Source: Paecilomyces variotii (taxonomy: Eukaryota). Taken from it: a DNA stretch of 64,000 bases. Positions 11,024 through 19,809 of this stretch are shown here, piece after piece. A model generated the notes under the pieces. The model did not search any database. It was given only the letters and a program-made list of their open reading frames with translations, and had not been told where the DNA came from. The stretch lies in assembly GCA_004022145.1 (NCBI GenBank), contig RCNU01000008.1; one strand, written 5' to 3'. Position 1 is the first letter of the stretch. Each line of letters begins with the position of its first letter. Made by a program: the position numbers and the translations under genes.

Positions 11024-13435
11024 TTACTGCTGAGCTCCTTCCGTTCCGGGAAGCGGATAATAATATCCTTGATCCAGGGAACTATTCAGGCTCCCGAAAT
11101 CGAGCTTCATAAGCAACCGATCCACGCCGGCTGCTTTACGCGGGACGTAGTCATACATATCCATGGGCTGCGTGGGAGCAGGAGCGGCGACGGGTACGGC
11201 CGCGGTTCGATTGGGGTTGCCCAGATCGAATAATCGACGGCCCTCGCCAGAACGACTATCGTCGATGTCTCGTAATCGTGCAATGACGTCTTTGATACCA
11301 GTCTCGATTTCGTTGCAGGTCTCGCGTAACTCGTGTCGGATGGAAGTCTCTTCTCGCGCGTAGTCTGCTAGGGCGTCGACGACGCCTTCGTCCGTTTCGA
11401 GGTCCAGATTTCGCTGGACAGCCTCGAGACGGCTGACGAGGGCAATGAGATGGTCGATATTGGTGAGAAGAGAGCGGAGTGCGCTGGTGAAGGGGACGTC
11501 GGTCAGGAAGAGAGACTGCACGAGGGAGGCGATGTAACGACGATGTGCGACAGTGAGCGCTTCTGGGTCATGAGGCTGATGGTGGAGTTGAGCTGATTGA
11601 TTGAATGGATTGTCCGTGGCTGTCGTTTCACCAGATGCGGTGCGGTGGATTTGTTTCATTGAATGCCCCGTTCCAGGCCGAGAGCTTGCTTTGGAGGATG
11701 TTCCTGGCCGGGATGCTGGTCGTGATAATGGACTGGATGAAGTGCCTTCGATGGATTCTCGAAGGTGCTGCCACGAACCGTTGATTACCTCGCCCTGGAA
11801 ATAGCTTCCTATCTCTGATAAGACAAAAAGAGAAGCGCTGCTTGTGGCCCAGATACGTCTCATTTGTACTGTTCGTGCGTTCTCCCGCTGTCTGCGTATC
11901 CGAAGCTGGTATTCTCCGCCTCTCTTATTGCTTCGAGGAGGACCCCATGGAGAAGGATAACTCCGCCGAAGAGAGGTATGCTTCCAGAGGTCGCCTAGTC
12001 GGATTTGTGCTCGGCGGATACCAAGGAGATACGAGTGTATCCTAGAGTAGATAGCTATGTCCGATGCGGCAAGAAACAAATCAAGAGGAGGGCGGACTTG
12101 GAGTGAGAGAGAGGTCGGGGTTGGGAAGAGAAGGTCGTCGAAAGAGACACTGGAGATCTCAGCAATCAAGCTAGGACCAGAACCATCTTGAGGCGTCGCT
12201 GCACGGCTGCTTTTCTTGCTGCTGACGGATAAACGAAGCAAGTCCCGCGCGAGTTCCAACTCGTCGTCAACGGGATCTTCTTCGTTCTGAAGAGAGGCCA
12301 GTTCTGCCCATGTCTGAGTAAGAACTGCCATCGCTTCTCCCTCCTTGATGGCGAGGCCATCTAGGCTGCCAGCTGTCCTGGATCGGTGTCGTCCATAAAT
12401 ACGCTTATCAGCTTGTGACACCAGCGCCATTGCAAATTCGCCGCGACCCAAAAGAAGGAAGTCATGGAGCAGAGACAGAACCTCAAGAATCTTGGGTAAC
12501 GGAAGAAGCTTGGAGAGAGCCGTTTGCGACAGCGATAATCGAATAGCAGTTATGGCGTTTGAGAAATTTGTCCGTGATATAGGCGATGCCAGAGAAGAAA
12601 GGTGCCCAATATGATCTCCCTGCAGGGTCACCTGCGACAGAGAACTCTGTGAAGCATCTGCTGTGGACGTTTTCCGCTTGGCTCTGATGTGGTTCAGAGA
12701 TTTCCCTATGAACAGGATCGACGACGCTGTAGTAGACGAGACGAACTTTGGAAGCAAGTCTGCATGCATGACGAAATCCAGCCCATCTCCCTCGTTGCTC
12801 GTATCTTCCTGGATAAAGAAGTCCTCCTTCCCGAAAGTAGGCAAATTTCCGTACAGTAGCCACATCGATAGTTGTCTCATCCATGCTGTCTCCGCCGCTT
12901 TTACCAGCTGTACTGCCATCTCCTCCAGGTCGATATAACCAGTCTGCGACTCCTTCCGCAGGTAATCAATGACGGCCGCGCCGCTGCAATTACCCGGTCC
13001 TCTATCCTGCGTCGAATCTGGTTTCATGAACCGAGCCACCTCCCACAACCATTCCATCCTCCGTGTCCAGGGAGCGAATTCCCCGACAAGGGTCGACAGA
13101 GGAACTATCCCGTATCCTCCCACATAGCTGCTATCGTTGAGGAGAATGCTCTTTTCCACCTCCACGATCTTCTTCTGGAATCGCCCTAGGTGCTCCGTTG
13201 CAATTGCCGTGGAGACTGCCCGACATATAGTTGAAGGATGCGCAGCAGAAATCTTGGAGGTATGAGCGCGGAGAAGAGCATGGAGACGACTCAGCCGCGC
13301 AAGGGAATCGAGGAGGGCCTTTTCTGGCGGTGACAGCAGTGGAAAAGATGACCGAGTAGGGTCTCCCTTCTCCGTCTGGGTGTCGAGGAGCGGAGACGGT
13401 TGGCCGGAGAGGGAGAGCAGGATCTCATGGAGCAT
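11024..13435 (-). CDS. GCP4: Gamma-tubulin complex component GCP4 (Spc97/Spc98 family)
   Basis: 803-aa single ORF. N-terminal MLHEILLSLSG, ILFIGKS, FLLLGRGEFA and PLDLFL motifs are typical of GCP4. Confidence 0.88.
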   Translation of the reverse strand: MLHEILLSLSGQPSPLLDTQTEKGDPTRSSFPLLSPPEKALLDSLARLSRLHALLRAHTSKISAAHPSTICRAVSTAIATEHLGRFQKKIVEVEKSILLNDSSYVGGYGIVPLSTLVGEFAPWTRRMEWLWEVARFMKPDSTQDRGPGNCSGAAVIDYLRKESQTGYIDLEEMAVQLVKAAETAWMRQLSMWLLYGNLPTFGKEDFFIQEDTSNEGDGLDFVMHADLLPKFVSSTTASSILFIGKSLNHIRAKRKTSTADASQSSLSQVTLQGDHIGHLSSLASPISRTNFSNAITAIRLSLSQTALSKLLPLPKILEVLSLLHDFLLLGRGEFAMALVSQADKRIYGRHRSRTAGSLDGLAIKEGEAMAVLTQTWAELASLQNEEDPVDDELELARDLLRLSVSSKKSSRAATPQDGSGPSLIAEISSVSFDDLLFPTPTSLSLQVRPPLDLFLAASDIAIYSRIHSYLLGIRRAQIRLGDLWKHTSLRRSYPSPWGPPRSNKRGGEYQLRIRRQRENARTVQMRRIWATSSASLFVLSEIGSYFQGEVINGSWQHLRESIEGTSSSPLSRPASRPGTSSKASSRPGTGHSMKQIHRTASGETTATDNPFNQSAQLHHQPHDPEALTVAHRRYIASLVQSLFLTDVPFTSALRSLLTNIDHLIALVSRLEAVQRNLDLETDEGVVDALADYAREETSIRHELRETCNEIETGIKDVIARLRDIDDSRSGEGRRLFDLGNPNRTAAVPVAAPAPTQPMDMYDYVPRKAAGVDRLLMKLDFGSLNSSLDQGYYYPLPGTEGAQQ

Positions 13436-14242
13436 TCTGTTTGCAAAGGTCTATGGACACGCCGCAAAGCGGCAGGTTAATTAGTTAAAGCTGCGGTCTG
13501 GAGTCTCCGCGATGCGCTCAACGCTCAGCCCACCTGGATGGGAGGTCTCTCGTAGCCTCTGCCCGTCGACGCTGCCAGTACAAGATGCCACACCCGAGAA
13601 GCTCAAATCGGCACATCCAGAGATAGCGGTATGATCATCACTGGCTCTCGTCAATCTCTGATGGTCGTCGTGGTTGGCCCGCTACAGTGTACACGCATCA
13701 GAGACGCGGAGCGCGAAGTTGGCGGAACAGCGGCGGAGCTCTTTTGAGGCGTGCTACGTAGTTAAGGGCTACCGTCCAATGCCAAAAGACAAAAAAAAAG
13801 CCTATTTTCTTTGTTGTTGGCAGTGTACACGCTGGAATTCCCATAAGATCCCTCTAACTGCGCCCGCTGCTCAATTACTCGTACATCGCACGTTATGTTT
13901 GCCCATCCTTCCATCATGCTCGATGATTGTTGTCTCTCTGCCGCCCGTCACCGCCCTCTGCAGCCTTTGTTTTCAGGCATCCGCGGGGCTGTCTGCGCTG
14001 GAGCTGCTCTGGACCAATGAGAGGCCTCACATCCGTTAGTCATCTACCTTGTTACGTCGAGCACCGAAAGAGCCACCGCGAGCTGTTTCTCTCGCAACTC
14101 CTTCGTTTCTTACGCTCTCCATCGCTTTCTCTCCTGCTCTGCGTGTTGTTCCTGTTTCATCCTCCCTTATCAGAGTCGCCCTACTTCGTCAGGTGTAACC
14201 AGGAAGCGGTCGTTGGGTCAAGCAGACGGCTAGCGTCGCCGC

Positions 14243-14249
14243 TATATAA
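14243..14249 (+). promoter_or_regulatory. Putative TATA box of UBA1
   Basis: TATATAA about 220 nt upstream of the UBA1 ATG, following a pyrimidine-rich tract. Confidence 0.4.
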
Positions 14250-14463
14250 GCCAGTATTACAATAGCAGTCCCGCCTGTCTTTGAGCTCGACGCGATAAAG
14301 CGGTAGCCCATCTCCTGACTCTTTGTTGGAAAGTCTTGCTCGAAGCAAGGCTTTCATCTGTTAGGTCTTCACAATTCCCGCCACTACAGAGATCCGTGAA
14401 ACTTCCAAGCTGGGAAAGCGGAAAGCATCCAGTGAACAACCAGCTCGTCCCGAGAAGAAGATC

Positions 14464-17400
14464 ATGACGGTGAGTCACGCGAGCAGCAGCACTCCGGAGG
14501 CGCATAAATTGCTGTGAGAGTATCAGTACTGACAAGCATCAGGACGGCAAAATGCAGGTCGACAACCCCCAGGAGGCGGTCGAGGCTGCCAAGCAGCCGG
14601 ACATTGATGAGTCGTTGTACAGCCGGCAACTGTAGGTGTCGACTCTCTATACCTAGGTCGCAGGAGCGTCTCGAGACTAATTTGTTCTAGGTACGTCCTT
14701 GGTCATGAGGCAATGAAGCGTATGGGTTCATCGAATGTCCTGGTTGTGGGTTTGAAGGGCTTGGGTGTCGAGATTGGTAAGTAATGTAACATAGAGCTTC
14801 GAAAGGTCCCGCGGCGATCTCTAACAGCTCACCTTACAGCGAAGAATATCGCTCTCGCCGGTGTTAAGTCGCTTACACTTTATGACCCCGCTCCCGTCGC
14901 CATCTCCGACCTCTCCTCCCAGTTCTTCCTGCATCCAGACGACGTGGGCAAGCGCCGCGATGAAGTAACCGCTCCACGTGTGGCAGAGCTCAACTCCTAC
15001 GTCCCAACAACAGTCTTCGAAGGAAAGAATCTGGTCGATGACCTCTCGCAACTCAAGCGCTTCCAAGTAGTCGTTTTGACCATCACGCCGCTGAAAGAGC
15101 AGCTTGCCATTGCTGAATACTGTCACAACAATGGCATCTATATCACCATCACGGATACCTTTGGTCTTTTTGGTTACGTCTTTAACGATTTTGGAAAGAA
15201 TTTCACGGTGGGAGACGCAAATGGAGAGAATCCTGTCAGCGGAATTGTTGCGGATATTGATGACGACGGTCTTGTCTCTGCGTTGGACGAGACCAGACAC
15301 GGTTTGGAGGATGGTGACTACGTGACTTTCACGGAGATCAAGGGCATGGAAGGACTTAACAACTCTGCCCCTCGAAAGGTCACCGTCAAGGGACCTTACA
15401 CTTTCTCCATTGGAGATGTCTCTGGTCTCGGGAAGTACCAGGGCGGTGGTCTCTTTACCCAGGTGAAGATGCCTAAGTTCATCGATTTCCAGCCTCTGTC
15501 CGAGCAGATTAAGAAGCCGGAGCTCCTGATCTCTGATTTCGCCAAGTTTGATCGCCCGCAGCAACTGCACGTGGGTATTCAGGCTCTGCACAAGTTTGCG
15601 GAGGCTCACGACGGCCAACTCCCTCGTCCTCACGGTGAAAGTGATGCAGAGGAGGTGTGGAAGATTGCTCAGGGTCTGGCTGGTGAAGGCGAAGAGAAGG
15701 TTGAGCTGGACGAGAAGCTGATTAAGGAGCTCAGCTACCAGGCTCGGGGAGACCTCAACCCGATGGCTGCGTTCTTCGGAGGTCTCGCCGCCCAGGAAGT
15801 TCTCAAGGCTGTCTCCGGCAAATTTAATCCCGTTGTCCAATGGATGTACGTTGACTCGCTCGAGTCTCTGCCCGAGTCGGTCACTCGCTCGGAGGAGACC
15901 TGTAAGCCTCTGGGTACCCGCTATGACGGGCAGATCGCGGTATTCGGCAAGGAATTCCAAGAGAAGATTTCGAATGTCCGTCAGTTCCTCGTTGGCGCAG
16001 GTGCCATCGGATGTGAGATGCTGAAGAACTGGGCTATGATCGGCTTGGGTACCGGTCCCAAGGGTAAGATCAGTGTCACAGATATGGATCAGATTGAGAG
16101 GAGCAACCTGAACCGACAGTTTCTATTCCGATCGAAGGATGTCGGAAAGCTGAAGAGTGAATGCGCCTCCGCTGCGGTGCAGGCCATGAACCCCGAATTG
16201 CAAGGAAAGATCGTGACACTGCGAGACCGTGTCGGGCCCGACACGGAGCACGTCTTCAACGAAGAGTTCTGGGAGGACCTCGACGTGGTAACGAATGCTC
16301 TTGACAACGTTGATGCGAGAACCTACGTTGACCGCCGGTGTGTTTTCTTCCGCAAGCCCTTGTTGGAGAGTGGAACTCTTGGGACCAAGGGTAATACGCA
16401 GGTGATCCTGCCGGGCTTGACCGAGTCGTACTCGAGCTCTCAGGACCCGCCAGAGCAGTCTTTCCCCATGTGTACCTTGAAGAGTTTCCCCAACCGTATT
16501 GAACATACCATTGCGTGGGCACGGGATCTCTTCCAGACTTACTTCGTCGGACCTCCCGAGGCTGTGAACATGTACCTCTCTCAACCCAACTACATTGAAC
16601 AAACCTTGAAACAGGCTGGCAATGAGAAGCAGACGCTGGAACACCTGAACAGCTTCCTGGTTACCGACAAGCCACTGAGCTTCGACGACTGCATTGTATG
16701 GGCTCGCCAACAGTTTGAGGCCCAGTACAACAATGCCATCCAGCAACTACTGTACAATTTCCCTAAGGATTCCAAGACCTCGACTGGTCAGCCTTTCTGG
16801 TCTGGCCCCAAGCGTGCACCGACACCGCTGAAGTTTGATCCCACGAACCCCACACACATTGGTTTCATCATCGCTGCTGCCAATCTGCATGCGTTCAACT
16901 ACGGCATTAAGAGCCCGCCCGTGGATAAGGAACACTACCGAAAGGTGGTTGAGAACATGATTATCCCTGAATTCACGCCCAGTTCCAGTGTGAAGATCCA
17001 GGCGAATGAGAACGACCCCGATCCCAATGCTCAACCTTCTGGATCTTCCTTCGATGACAACGAGGAGATCAAGCGCCTCGTCGAGTCTCTTCCATCACCG
17101 AAGTCCCTCGCTGGATTCCGTCTTCACCCTGTGGAGTTCGAGAAGGATGATGACACGAACCATCACATTGACTTCATCACGGCGGCCAGCAATCTCCGTG
17201 CTGAGAACTACGACATCCCGCAGGCTGATCGTCACAAGACGAAGTTCATCGCCGGCAAGATCATCCCTGCCATCGCGACCACCACGGCCCTGGTCACCGG
17301 TCTGGTTATCCTCGAGCTGTACAAGATCATCGATGGCAAGCAGGATATCGAAAAGTACAAGAATGGCTTCGTCAACCTGGCGCTTCCATTCTTTGGCTTC

Positions 17401-17819: not shown

Positions 17820-18221
17820 TCCAATGTGGTCGGGTTTCTCCGGGGAGCTAGTTTACGCGAGAATGATTCATGTTGATACCGTGGAATAGAATCAATCCTA
17901 TGTAGTTTCTGTTTCTATTTTGCGTAAATCCGTGGCTTAGTTAGCCACATACATGCTGAATAATGAGTACGAACAGGCGACGGGCTCAGTTAGTAACAAT
18001 TGCTCAGCTCTAGATCTGCTTTGTTATCGCTTTGTCATCCCGCATGTCCGGTTAGGGAGTTAACTAACGTCAACTAAATACTTAGCGAATCTTCAGTCAG
18101 CCAGAAGGCGCCGAGTGACTGCTCCACAGCGTCATCGCATCGAGCTCTGTAGAAGCTGACAAAAACCACGACTGCGCCAGCTTGCTACAACTGATCTTTT
18201 GCTGAGTCTCAGACAGATTTC

Positions 18222-19809
18222 ATGCATCGTTCACTGCTGCGATCTACTCAGCTGCTCTACCATCTTCAATCGCCAAAGCGCCCCAGCTTTGCCACTTTTT
18301 CCGTCTCCGCACGCATCTCCGCATTCAACCCCGGCGCAAGAACTATGTCGGTACGTGCACCCCCTCCATTGCCTGTTTCCTTTGCTCCCTCTCATCCTGT
18401 TTCTTTCCATTGCTCTCCCACAATTATCGATTCTAATCTTCTCCATTCAGACGGGAAAGATCACCGATTGGGTTGATCCCAAAGACAAGTCCGGCGAGTT
18501 CAAGCGCGGAGCGTCCGTTTTCCGTAACTGGATCTCGCGAGAGCCCGGCGCAACATTCCCGCCTGAGAAGGATCGATACCATCTCTACGTCTCACATGCC
18601 TGTCCTTGGGGTATGTTTTATTGTTTTTCTGATTCAATTTTGATTGCGTTCCCATGACCCTTATCCTGGCCAAGTGACCCCAGAATTGCTGGGGAGGAAG
18701 AGAAAAGGATAGGATGTGATGAGTTTGGGTTGTGTTGTCTGTCTATGCTTATCAGAAAAAGACTGACAACGAGTCAAAAAAAAAAAACTATAGCGCATAG
18801 AACATTGATTGTCCGCAAACTCAAGGGTCTTGAGGATATCATCCCGTATACAGCCGTGCACTGGCATATGGGAGAGAAAGGTTCGTGGCATTTTCCCCTC
18901 GACTGATTATCTTATCTTTTTTTTTTTTTTTTTTTGCTCTTCTTAATAAGGAAAACTGTTCCCGTGTTGACTTTTTGGAAAGGATGGCGGTTTGCGACGC
19001 CCGATGAGAATGTCCCCGGTGACAATGTCACCCCTGACCCTATTCACCCGGAGTTTACTCATCTTCGGGATATCTATTTCTCGGTAGATCCCGAGTATAA
19101 GGGAAGATTCACCGTTCCTACTTTGTACGATAAGAAGACGAAGCGTATCGTGAGCAACGAGGTATGTATTGTTTTTCCAGCATCTATTTGAAAGACTCCA
19201 GTCAGTCCTGCAAATCTAACAATCAGATAGAGCTCCGAGATCATCCGCATGTTCTACTACGAATTCGATGACCTCCTTCCCGAAAAGTACAAGAAAGTCG
19301 ATCTCTTCCCTCCATCTCTTCGCTCCGAGATCGAAGCGACTAACGACTGGACCTACAACGACGTCAACAACGGCGTGTACAAGTCCGGCTTCGCTACCAC
19401 ACAAGAAGCCTACGAGAAGGCCGTCAAGACGCTCTTCTCATCCCTTGATCGGATTGAAGCTCATCTGGCAGAGCGTCAAGCCAAGTCTTCCTCGCCCTTC
19501 TACTTCGGCGACTCTGTCACTGAGGCTGATGTTCGTCTCTACACGACTGTTATCCGCTTTGATCCCGTGTACGTCCAGCATTTCAAGTGCAATATTCGCG
19601 ATATCAGATCCGGATACCCGGCTATTCATCGTTGGTTGAGAGCGCTGTATTGGGATATTCCGGCTTTCAAGGAGACGACCCAGTTTGAGCACATCAAGAA
19701 GCATTATACGAAGAGTCATGCACAGATTAACCAGTTTGCGATCACCCCCGTGGGACCTGTGCCGGATATTCTGCCGAAGGATCAAGAGGTCGCGGCAGTG
19801 AGGAAGTAA
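18222..19809 (+). CDS. ECM4: Omega-like glutathione transferase / glutathionyl-hydroquinone reductase (ECM4 family); 5 exons; alternative start at 18345
   Basis: Introns 18351-18450, 18611-18793, 18881-18982 and 19162-19230. Motifs RYHLYVSHACPWAHR, FTVPTLYD, IVSNESSEIIRM, NNGVYKSGFA, RFDPVYVQHFKCN. Confidence 0.92.

Follow-up and report, generated by a model that had tools for sequence, protein, structure and literature searches.

A conserved AUG-less N-terminal extension of the ubiquitin-activating enzyme UBA1 in filamentous ascomycetes, with candidate near-cognate start codons and a possible nuclear role

UBA1, the enzyme that activates ubiquitin (E1), is essential and stands at the head of the ubiquitin cascade, and its division between nucleus and cytoplasm is, to our knowledge, known only for mammals, where it is achieved by two AUG codons. 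Could a filamentous fungus produce a second form of this enzyme from a different kind of start codon? This question is raised by the UBA1 locus of Paecilomyces variotii, located in a 64,000-nucleotide stretch of contig RCNU01000008.1 (assembly GCA_004022145.1), which is called the window here. The gene is recognized by five E1 Pfam domains in its large exon (UBA_E1_SCCH, ThiF, E1_4HB, E1_FCCH and E1_UFD), and it is 100% identical to P. variotii models of 1034 residues that start at ATG 14464. Directly upstream of this ATG, positions 14365-14463 contain no stop codon and are in phase with the annotated start; translation of 14365-14469 gives 35 residues, and the extension includes GKRKASSEQPARPEK. 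An earlier note, made from the letters of the window alone, had proposed that this frame encodes a nuclear E1 isoform initiated at a near-cognate codon. It described the frame as open back to a TAG at 14362, with which the translation agrees, and as free of ATG codons from 14243 to 14464. The latter description can be extended, as the leader from 14097 to 14463 (367 nt) contains 0 ATG.

Taken as a single sequence, the open frame and the ATG-less leader do not exceed chance. The depletion of ATG is not significant alone (0 against 2.42 expected, P(0)=0.068, dinucleotide shuffles). The open frame alone is not distinctive either: 33 codons are open in frame 0 and 59 in another frame, and in the set compared below, 14 of 22 sequences have at least 28 open codons in frame -2. 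It is the comparison between species that yields a signal above chance.

Thirty-two related loci were fetched around UBA1 relatives from metagenome contigs. Six repeats (L002, L012, L014, L022, L026, L029), two loci ending before the region (L017, L018) and two distant loci without the motif (L031, 39% identity; L032, 31%) were left out. Of the 22 loci that remain, L021 was found later and is absent from the statistics on sequences (n=22); counts including it are given for n=23. These sequences are related by descent, so that the counts do not represent independent events. In all 22 assessable unique loci, the leader contains a peptide without stops that fits (A)K-L-G-K-R-K-x-S, followed by 8-12 residues, K-(K/R)-x and an invariant Met. 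K18, R19, S22 and this Met are identical in each of the 22 sequences. The leader alignment that the earlier note had suggested as a check thus finds the frame open and the KRK...K(K/R) residues kept throughout. In L021, the peptide lies 1.1 kb upstream, behind a long intron. The annotated AUG has a purine at -3 in nearly all sequences (A in 18, G in three, C in one; n=22).

Judged by the nearest named protein (BLAST), the relatives include three Penicillium (99%), a Rasamsonia-like fungus (87.5%), Lecanoromycetes (84-94%) and Dothideomycetes (84-87%), while L006-8, L015, L023-25, L028 and L030 share 74-79% identity with their nearest named protein. Going by these assignments, conservation of the extension spans a broad set of filamentous ascomycetes. 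Only one of the 23 sequences (L028) has an in-frame upstream ATG within the stop-bounded frame. The intron after Met-Thr is present in 17 of the 22 unique loci and absent from L006-L009 and L015, in which a single open frame of 871-1101 codons runs without interruption from the extension through the ATG and across the whole E1.

The peptide is missing from all eight models of P. variotii and P. lecythidis and from 111 of the 120 UBA1 models listed. The nine others among the 120 matches listed are over-extended Aspergillus and Penicillium models (P0012, P0014, P0018, P0023, P0026, P0055, P0056, P0075 and P0109) that read the same upstream frame, FTIPSEIPVRDAAKLGKRRAS...RPEKKIMTD. A profile of the extension, compared with 1.84 billion representatives, gave 33 matches, of which 32 are further exon-1 open reading frames (ORFs) with the motif and one, the repeat protein P0247, is unrelated. 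None of these matches is a full-length E1 of an animal or a yeast. Against longer proteins, it gave 12 matches, mostly exon-1 ORFs.

The conserved segment evolves as a coding sequence. Since the codon alignments are guided by the peptide, which favours a coding result, shifted frames, the region upstream of the ATT and a frame-blind alignment served as controls. From the CTG at 14410 to the ATG, sequence pairs differ on average by 0.415, 0.400 and 0.644 at the first, second and third codon positions, against 0.68, 0.70 and 0.69 upstream of the ATT column in the same alignment. The ratio of nonsynonymous to synonymous substitution rates (dN/dS; Nei-Gojobori method, NG86; six close pairs) is 0.20 in frame, compared with 4.31 and 0.93 when shifted by one and two bases. 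For four distant pairs, whose synonymous sites are saturated, the corresponding ratio of uncorrected proportions (pN/pS) is 0.54 in frame against 1.03 and 1.09 shifted. The ATT-to-CTG part shows a weaker signal in the same direction (dN/dS 0.62 in frame; 1.56 and 1.28 shifted). Invariant residues are spelled by many codons, five for Arg, four for Ser and four for Gly, and the frame-blind nucleotide alignment of 13 sequences gives the same columns. The synonymous-site bias for which the earlier note had called is observed in the frame of the main ORF. On these comparisons, the extension is under protein-level purifying selection, and it is very probably translated.

At which codon would translation start? 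The earlier note had pointed to two near-cognates in good context, ATT at 14374 and CTG at 14410, and both proved to lie at conserved near-cognate positions covered by RNA. The Leu column at 14410 is strongly restricted in codon usage: of its 15 Leu codons, 14 are CTG and one is TTG, and the other four Leu codons are unused. The Lys codon before it is AAG in 14 of 14 cases, while other Lys columns have AAA in a quarter to half of the sequences. Counting L021, which reads AAG CTG G, CTG occurs in 15 of 23 sequences, as AAG-CTG-G or ACG-CTG-G, in every case having A at -3 and G at +4. Variants of this column are AAG TTG G in L016 and ACA ACG G in L009. In distant lineages, no coding signal is present in the 12 codons that precede the CTG (pN/pS 0.80 against 1.01 and 0.77 shifted; four distant pairs), and conservation there, as judged from this comparison, begins at the CTG. 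In nine gene models of other fungi, the first M stands at the CTG column or at most six residues upstream, with the reservation that in some models (lgn, jgi, ena) this M may not stand for ATG. Five of the nine, including P0165 of Cladosporium fusiforme, read MTKR... with the M aligned to the Leu column; three read MKR(R/K)..., including P0142 of Lecanosticta acicola (MKRR...), and one reads MDLPARLGKRK.

Six sequences have no near-cognate at the CTG column, namely the three Penicillium (TCG or CCG) and L006-8 (GCT). Each of these six retains an A-N-N-ATT located 12-13 codons further upstream, to which the conservation of its peptide extends. In total, 14 of 22 sequences have ATT at its column, each with A at -3, and all 13 sequences of the frame-blind alignment share it. 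Its distance to the ATG varies by whole codons only, between 28 and 31 codons. P. variotii carries both CTG and ATT. Because of its context and wider conservation, CUG is ranked as the first candidate start and AUU as the second.

A classical bipartite nuclear localization signal (NLS) consists of [KR][KR], a spacer of 10-12 residues and at least three basic residues in five. The consensus of basophilic kinases is Ser with Arg at -3 and Arg or Lys at -2. The bipartite likeness seen by the earlier note stands in so far as the KRK-x10-KK clusters are present and conserved; it fails on the classical rule, as the second cluster of the window sequence has two basic residues in five. Under a relaxed rule (two of five basic), two clusters 10-12 residues apart are found in 22 of 22 sequences.

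Comparison with the human enzyme gives this likeness a position. K-R-K-A-S...K-K lies about 38-42 residues before IDE(S/G)LYSRQ, the start of the adenylation domain (IDESLYSRQ in P. variotii), and in human UBA1 (chain 9mc4_A) the same motif starts near residue 49. According to PMC4596250, an NLS and four serines needed for phosphorylation lie in the first 11 residues of the human long form, and the short form starts 40 residues further on. The same enzyme would thus have, at a matching position, an N-terminal segment with a basic cluster and a serine that is restricted to the long form. Unlike in human nuclear UBA1a and cytoplasmic UBA1b, whose two in-frame starts are both AUG, the upstream start of the fungal form must be CUG or AUU. 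The likeness of the N-termini is one of position and composition only, as the PDB sequence alignment with human UBA1 begins only at IDE(S/G)LYSRQ. Nuclear import is considered the likeliest role because the position of the segment matches that of the human UBA1a NLS and phospho-serines.

Several observations weigh against a nuclear isoform made from a near-cognate start. Besides the ambiguous first M of some gene models mentioned above, the window sequence does not conform to the classical bipartite rule. This strict rule holds in only seven of the 22 sequences, and a monopartite K[KR]x[KR] is present in one of 22. In addition, no significant RNA structure that could aid initiation was detected 3' of the CUG (z -1.6; 16 of 200 shuffles as good). 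We nevertheless lean, with considerable reserve, towards an extension that is both translated from near-cognate start(s) and nuclear-targeting.

A serious rival, which we consider possible but distinctly less likely, is that the extension is translated and its conserved task is not nuclear import. K-R-x-x-S would then be a basophilic-kinase phosphosite, or another short linear motif, regulating the long E1. The pattern R-[RK]-x-S, a predicted kinase site under the consensus given above, is present in 21 of 22 sequences, including the window, and its Ser is invariant, whereas the window is not among the sequences that satisfy the strict bipartite rule. The conserved pair of basic clusters under the relaxed rule speaks against this explanation. 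Moreover, the human UBA1a NLS and phospho-serines share one short N-terminal segment (PMC4596250), and both roles could therefore be combined in one extension. Nuclear import therefore stays the leading, if unproven, candidate role.

The same leader also contains a conserved element that is clearly non-coding, a hairpin at 14329-14355. Its core is found in 13 of 22 sequences, which are 13 of the 14 carriers of the conserved ATT; L030 has the ATT without the hairpin. The consensus is a 6-bp stem. Its outer pair occurs as four pair types and is broken in no sequence, and in L005 pairing is kept via two G-U wobbles. This variation in pair types and the wobbles favour an RNA structure over a DNA palindrome. 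The 3' end of the hairpin lies 12-25 nt upstream of the ATT, with spacings in all three phases.

Such an element raises the possibility that the extension, too, is an untranslated regulatory element of the leader, acting in RNA or DNA, and that its open frame is incidental. This explanation is improbable. The third-position bias and the dN/dS of 0.20 are confined to the frame of the main ORF, and the ATT-ATG distance changes by whole codons while the hairpin-ATT spacing does not keep to a phase. Residues are retained through four to five synonymous codons, and ATG-started versions exist in other lineages.

The position of the extension on the messenger was determined from RNA contigs assembled from four runs (X5, X8, X10 and the metatranscriptome run X12) of four studies and placed on 13500-15100. 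Contigs of this kind show presence, not absence, and give no transcript starts or isoform levels; their ends hint only weakly at where transcription begins. The exon with the ATG runs on upstream unbroken, to 14117 in X5 and 14112 in X12, on the same contigs that carry the coding exons. In X8 and X10, contigs from 14334 join the coding exons, and overlapping contigs reach 14097 (X8) and 14112 (X10). As the contigs span the leader and connect it to the coding exons, mature UBA1 mRNA carries the extension together with both candidate codons. The contig ends between 14097 and 14117 lie upstream of both candidate codons. No run covers 13824-14096. At position 14388 within the extension, X12 has G in place of A, so that the Thr codon ACA becomes its synonym ACG and another in-frame near-cognate codon is added.

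The leader is alternatively spliced. Removal of its 80-nt intron introduces no ATG, and the spliced form still has the in-frame TAG at 14362 downstream of the junction. The TATA-like TATATAA at 14243 sits within the transcribed leader, in exonic sequence 10 nt before the donor of this intron. The acceptor at 14333 falls in the 5' arm of the hairpin, and splicing takes away its outer five pairs. AG dinucleotides just 5' of the hairpin are found in most related loci.

As an alternative to near-cognate initiation, the earlier note had considered an upstream AUG exon (ATG 14017, donor 14035, acceptor 14364), which would be in frame and has an acceptor-like TAG|G at 14364/14365; this is very improbable, as no 14035/14365 joint occurs among the contigs of the four runs, which cross 14364/14365 unbroken (a rare form could escape contigs), the sole leader junction is 14253/14334 and its spliced form still meets the TAG at 14362, the covered leader is ATG-less, and the stop-bounded upstream frame is without ATG in 21 of 22 other loci. 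A 12-letter loose end at 14097 in X8 was also considered as a possible upstream exon and rejected: its sole near match is on the minus strand within UBA1 (14711-14722, one mismatch), 33 of 100 shuffles match equally well, and no AG precedes 14097. The features of the locus are listed in Table 1.

Table 1. Features of the UBA1 leader and first coding exons in the P. variotii window.
Feature	Positions	Strand	Remarks
UBA1 leader, first part	14097..14253	+	contigs begin at 14097 (X8), 14112 (X10, X12) and 14117 (X5); no ATG
Alternative leader intron, 80 nt, GT..AG	14254..14333	+	joint 14253/14334 in X8 and X10; retained form in all four runs
Leader hairpin, 12-bp stem, core CUUGC/GCAAG, loop CGA	14329..14355	+	-16.4 kcal/mol, z -5.35, 0/200 shuffles as good
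In-frame stop TAG	14362..14364	+	5' bound of the extension frame
ATT, upstream candidate near-cognate start (ACA ATT C; -3 A)	14374..14376	+	would add 30 codons to the AUG form
CTG, first-ranked candidate near-cognate start (AAG CTG G; A at -3, G at +4)	14410..14412	+	would add 18 codons
K-R-K-A-S, basic cluster and serine, fits R-[RK]-x-S	14416..14430	+	KRK at 14416-14424, Ser at 14428
K-K, second basic cluster, 10 residues beyond KRK	14455..14460	+	from translation and alignment
Annotated start ATG and ACG (Met-Thr), A at -3	14464..14469	+	GTGAGT donor directly 3'
First coding intron, 73 nt	14470..14542	+	spliced in all four RNA runs
Coding exon	14543..14631	+	from RNA contig junctions
Coding introns two and three	14632-14690; 14777-14839	+	removed in all four RNA runs

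Taken together with the conservation data, these RNA data suggest the following mechanism for UBA1. Some of the ribosomes scanning the AUG-less leader of about 350-370 nt would start at CUG 14410, in its optimal A(-3)/G(+4) context, and some probably also at AUU 14374, both reading in frame into the main ORF. The remaining ribosomes would scan on to the invariant AUG 14464, a case of leaky scanning. The outcome would be a minor long E1, extended by 18 residues (CUG) or 30 residues (AUU), beside the AUG form of 1034 residues. Only the long form would have K-R-K-A-S...K-K, the likeliest role of which is nuclear import, possibly phospho-regulated, of some of the E1 molecules. The frame, its cover by RNA, protein-level purifying selection and the conserved nucleotides at the start sites are observed, whereas the use of CUG or AUU for initiation in P. 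variotii, the ratio between the isoforms and nuclear targeting are inferred.

How does this compare with known systems? In FGF2, the extension of the CUG-initiated form carries a nuclear signal. The review PMC5666671 describes CUG starts upstream of the AUG that give longer isoforms, with a location differing from that of the AUG form; it cites Bugler et al. (1991), who reportedly described cytoplasmic or nuclear localisation by alternative initiation. FGF2 and UBA1 would thus share a CUG upstream of the AUG; FGF2 is a mammalian growth factor with several CUGs.

There are fungal precedents as well. In Neurospora crassa, cpc-1 has a Pezizomycotina-wide AUG-less in-frame extension with a dN/dS of 0.285 and conserved near-cognates with A at -3 and G at +4 (PMC5487733). 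The UBA1 extension is marked by the same features, namely an open frame, purifying selection in the frame of the main ORF and conserved near-cognates with A at -3 and G at +4. As described for cpc-1 in fungi (PMC5487733), the candidate start stays in place and its codon alternates between AUG and near-cognates. Unlike the UBA1 extension, which is known here from sequence, that of cpc-1 is about 180 residues long, interwoven with upstream ORFs and experimentally shown. In Cryptococcus, isoforms of the arginyl- and leucyl-tRNA synthetases (ArgRS, LeuRS) arise from AUU or ACG starts, and leaky scanning on one mRNA adds a targeting peptide (PMC7049704). The strong context of a near-cognate upstream of the AUG is common to both cases, and the Cryptococcus ...caccAUU resembles TTCAC(A/C)ATT here. 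In contrast to the UBA1 case, the peptide added in Cryptococcus is a mitochondrial targeting signal, and these fungi are basidiomycetes.

No fungal UBA1 extension was found in full-text literature searches, the scope of which did not include subscription-only papers, and UBA1 is mentioned 0 times in three papers on fungal non-AUG starts (PMC5487733, PMC6582344 and PMC7049704). A near-cognate extension produced by leaky scanning is a known kind of mechanism that has apparently not been reported for this gene.

The surroundings of UBA1 show some further features. Upstream, a neighbouring transcript at 13421-13820 lies on the minus strand: contig 11 of X8 covers 13534-13820 and its loose end matches 13421-13450, which implies an 83-nt intron at 13451-13533 with GT..AG on the minus strand. 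From 13820, where this contig stops, to the UBA1 contig ends (14097-14117) there is a gap of about 276 bp, which includes ATG 14017 and looks like a shared divergent promoter. Downstream, a separate open frame at 18160-18657 of the window resembles a glutathione S-transferase neighbour. Many Aspergillus and Penicillium models of 1380-1470 residues (P0012-P0017, P0020-P0022 and others) fuse UBA1 to a glutathione S-transferase (PF13409, PF13410). Because the window has a separate downstream frame, these fusions are probably the result of annotation read-through.

In a wider and rather unlikely extrapolation, the basic, Ser-bearing N-terminus of UBA1 would be an ancient opisthokont module, the start codon of which has been swapped repeatedly in Pezizomycotina (AUG, CUG, UUG, ACG, AUU). 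The nuclear share of E1 would then be set by how stringently start codons are chosen (eIF1 and eIF5 levels, stress) and not by transcription or splicing, with the hairpin, partly removed by the leader intron, as a second dial.

If the proposed near-cognate initiation is true, about 18-30 conserved residues are absent from the annotated N-terminus of UBA1 in filamentous fungi. The locus offers an unusually clean experimental case: its single extension is short, the candidate codons are two, the Ser is invariant, and Cladosporium and Lecanosticta provide versions with a natural AUG start that could serve as controls. For the biology of these fungi, such initiation would mean that nuclear ubiquitin activation becomes sensitive to the fidelity of translation start.

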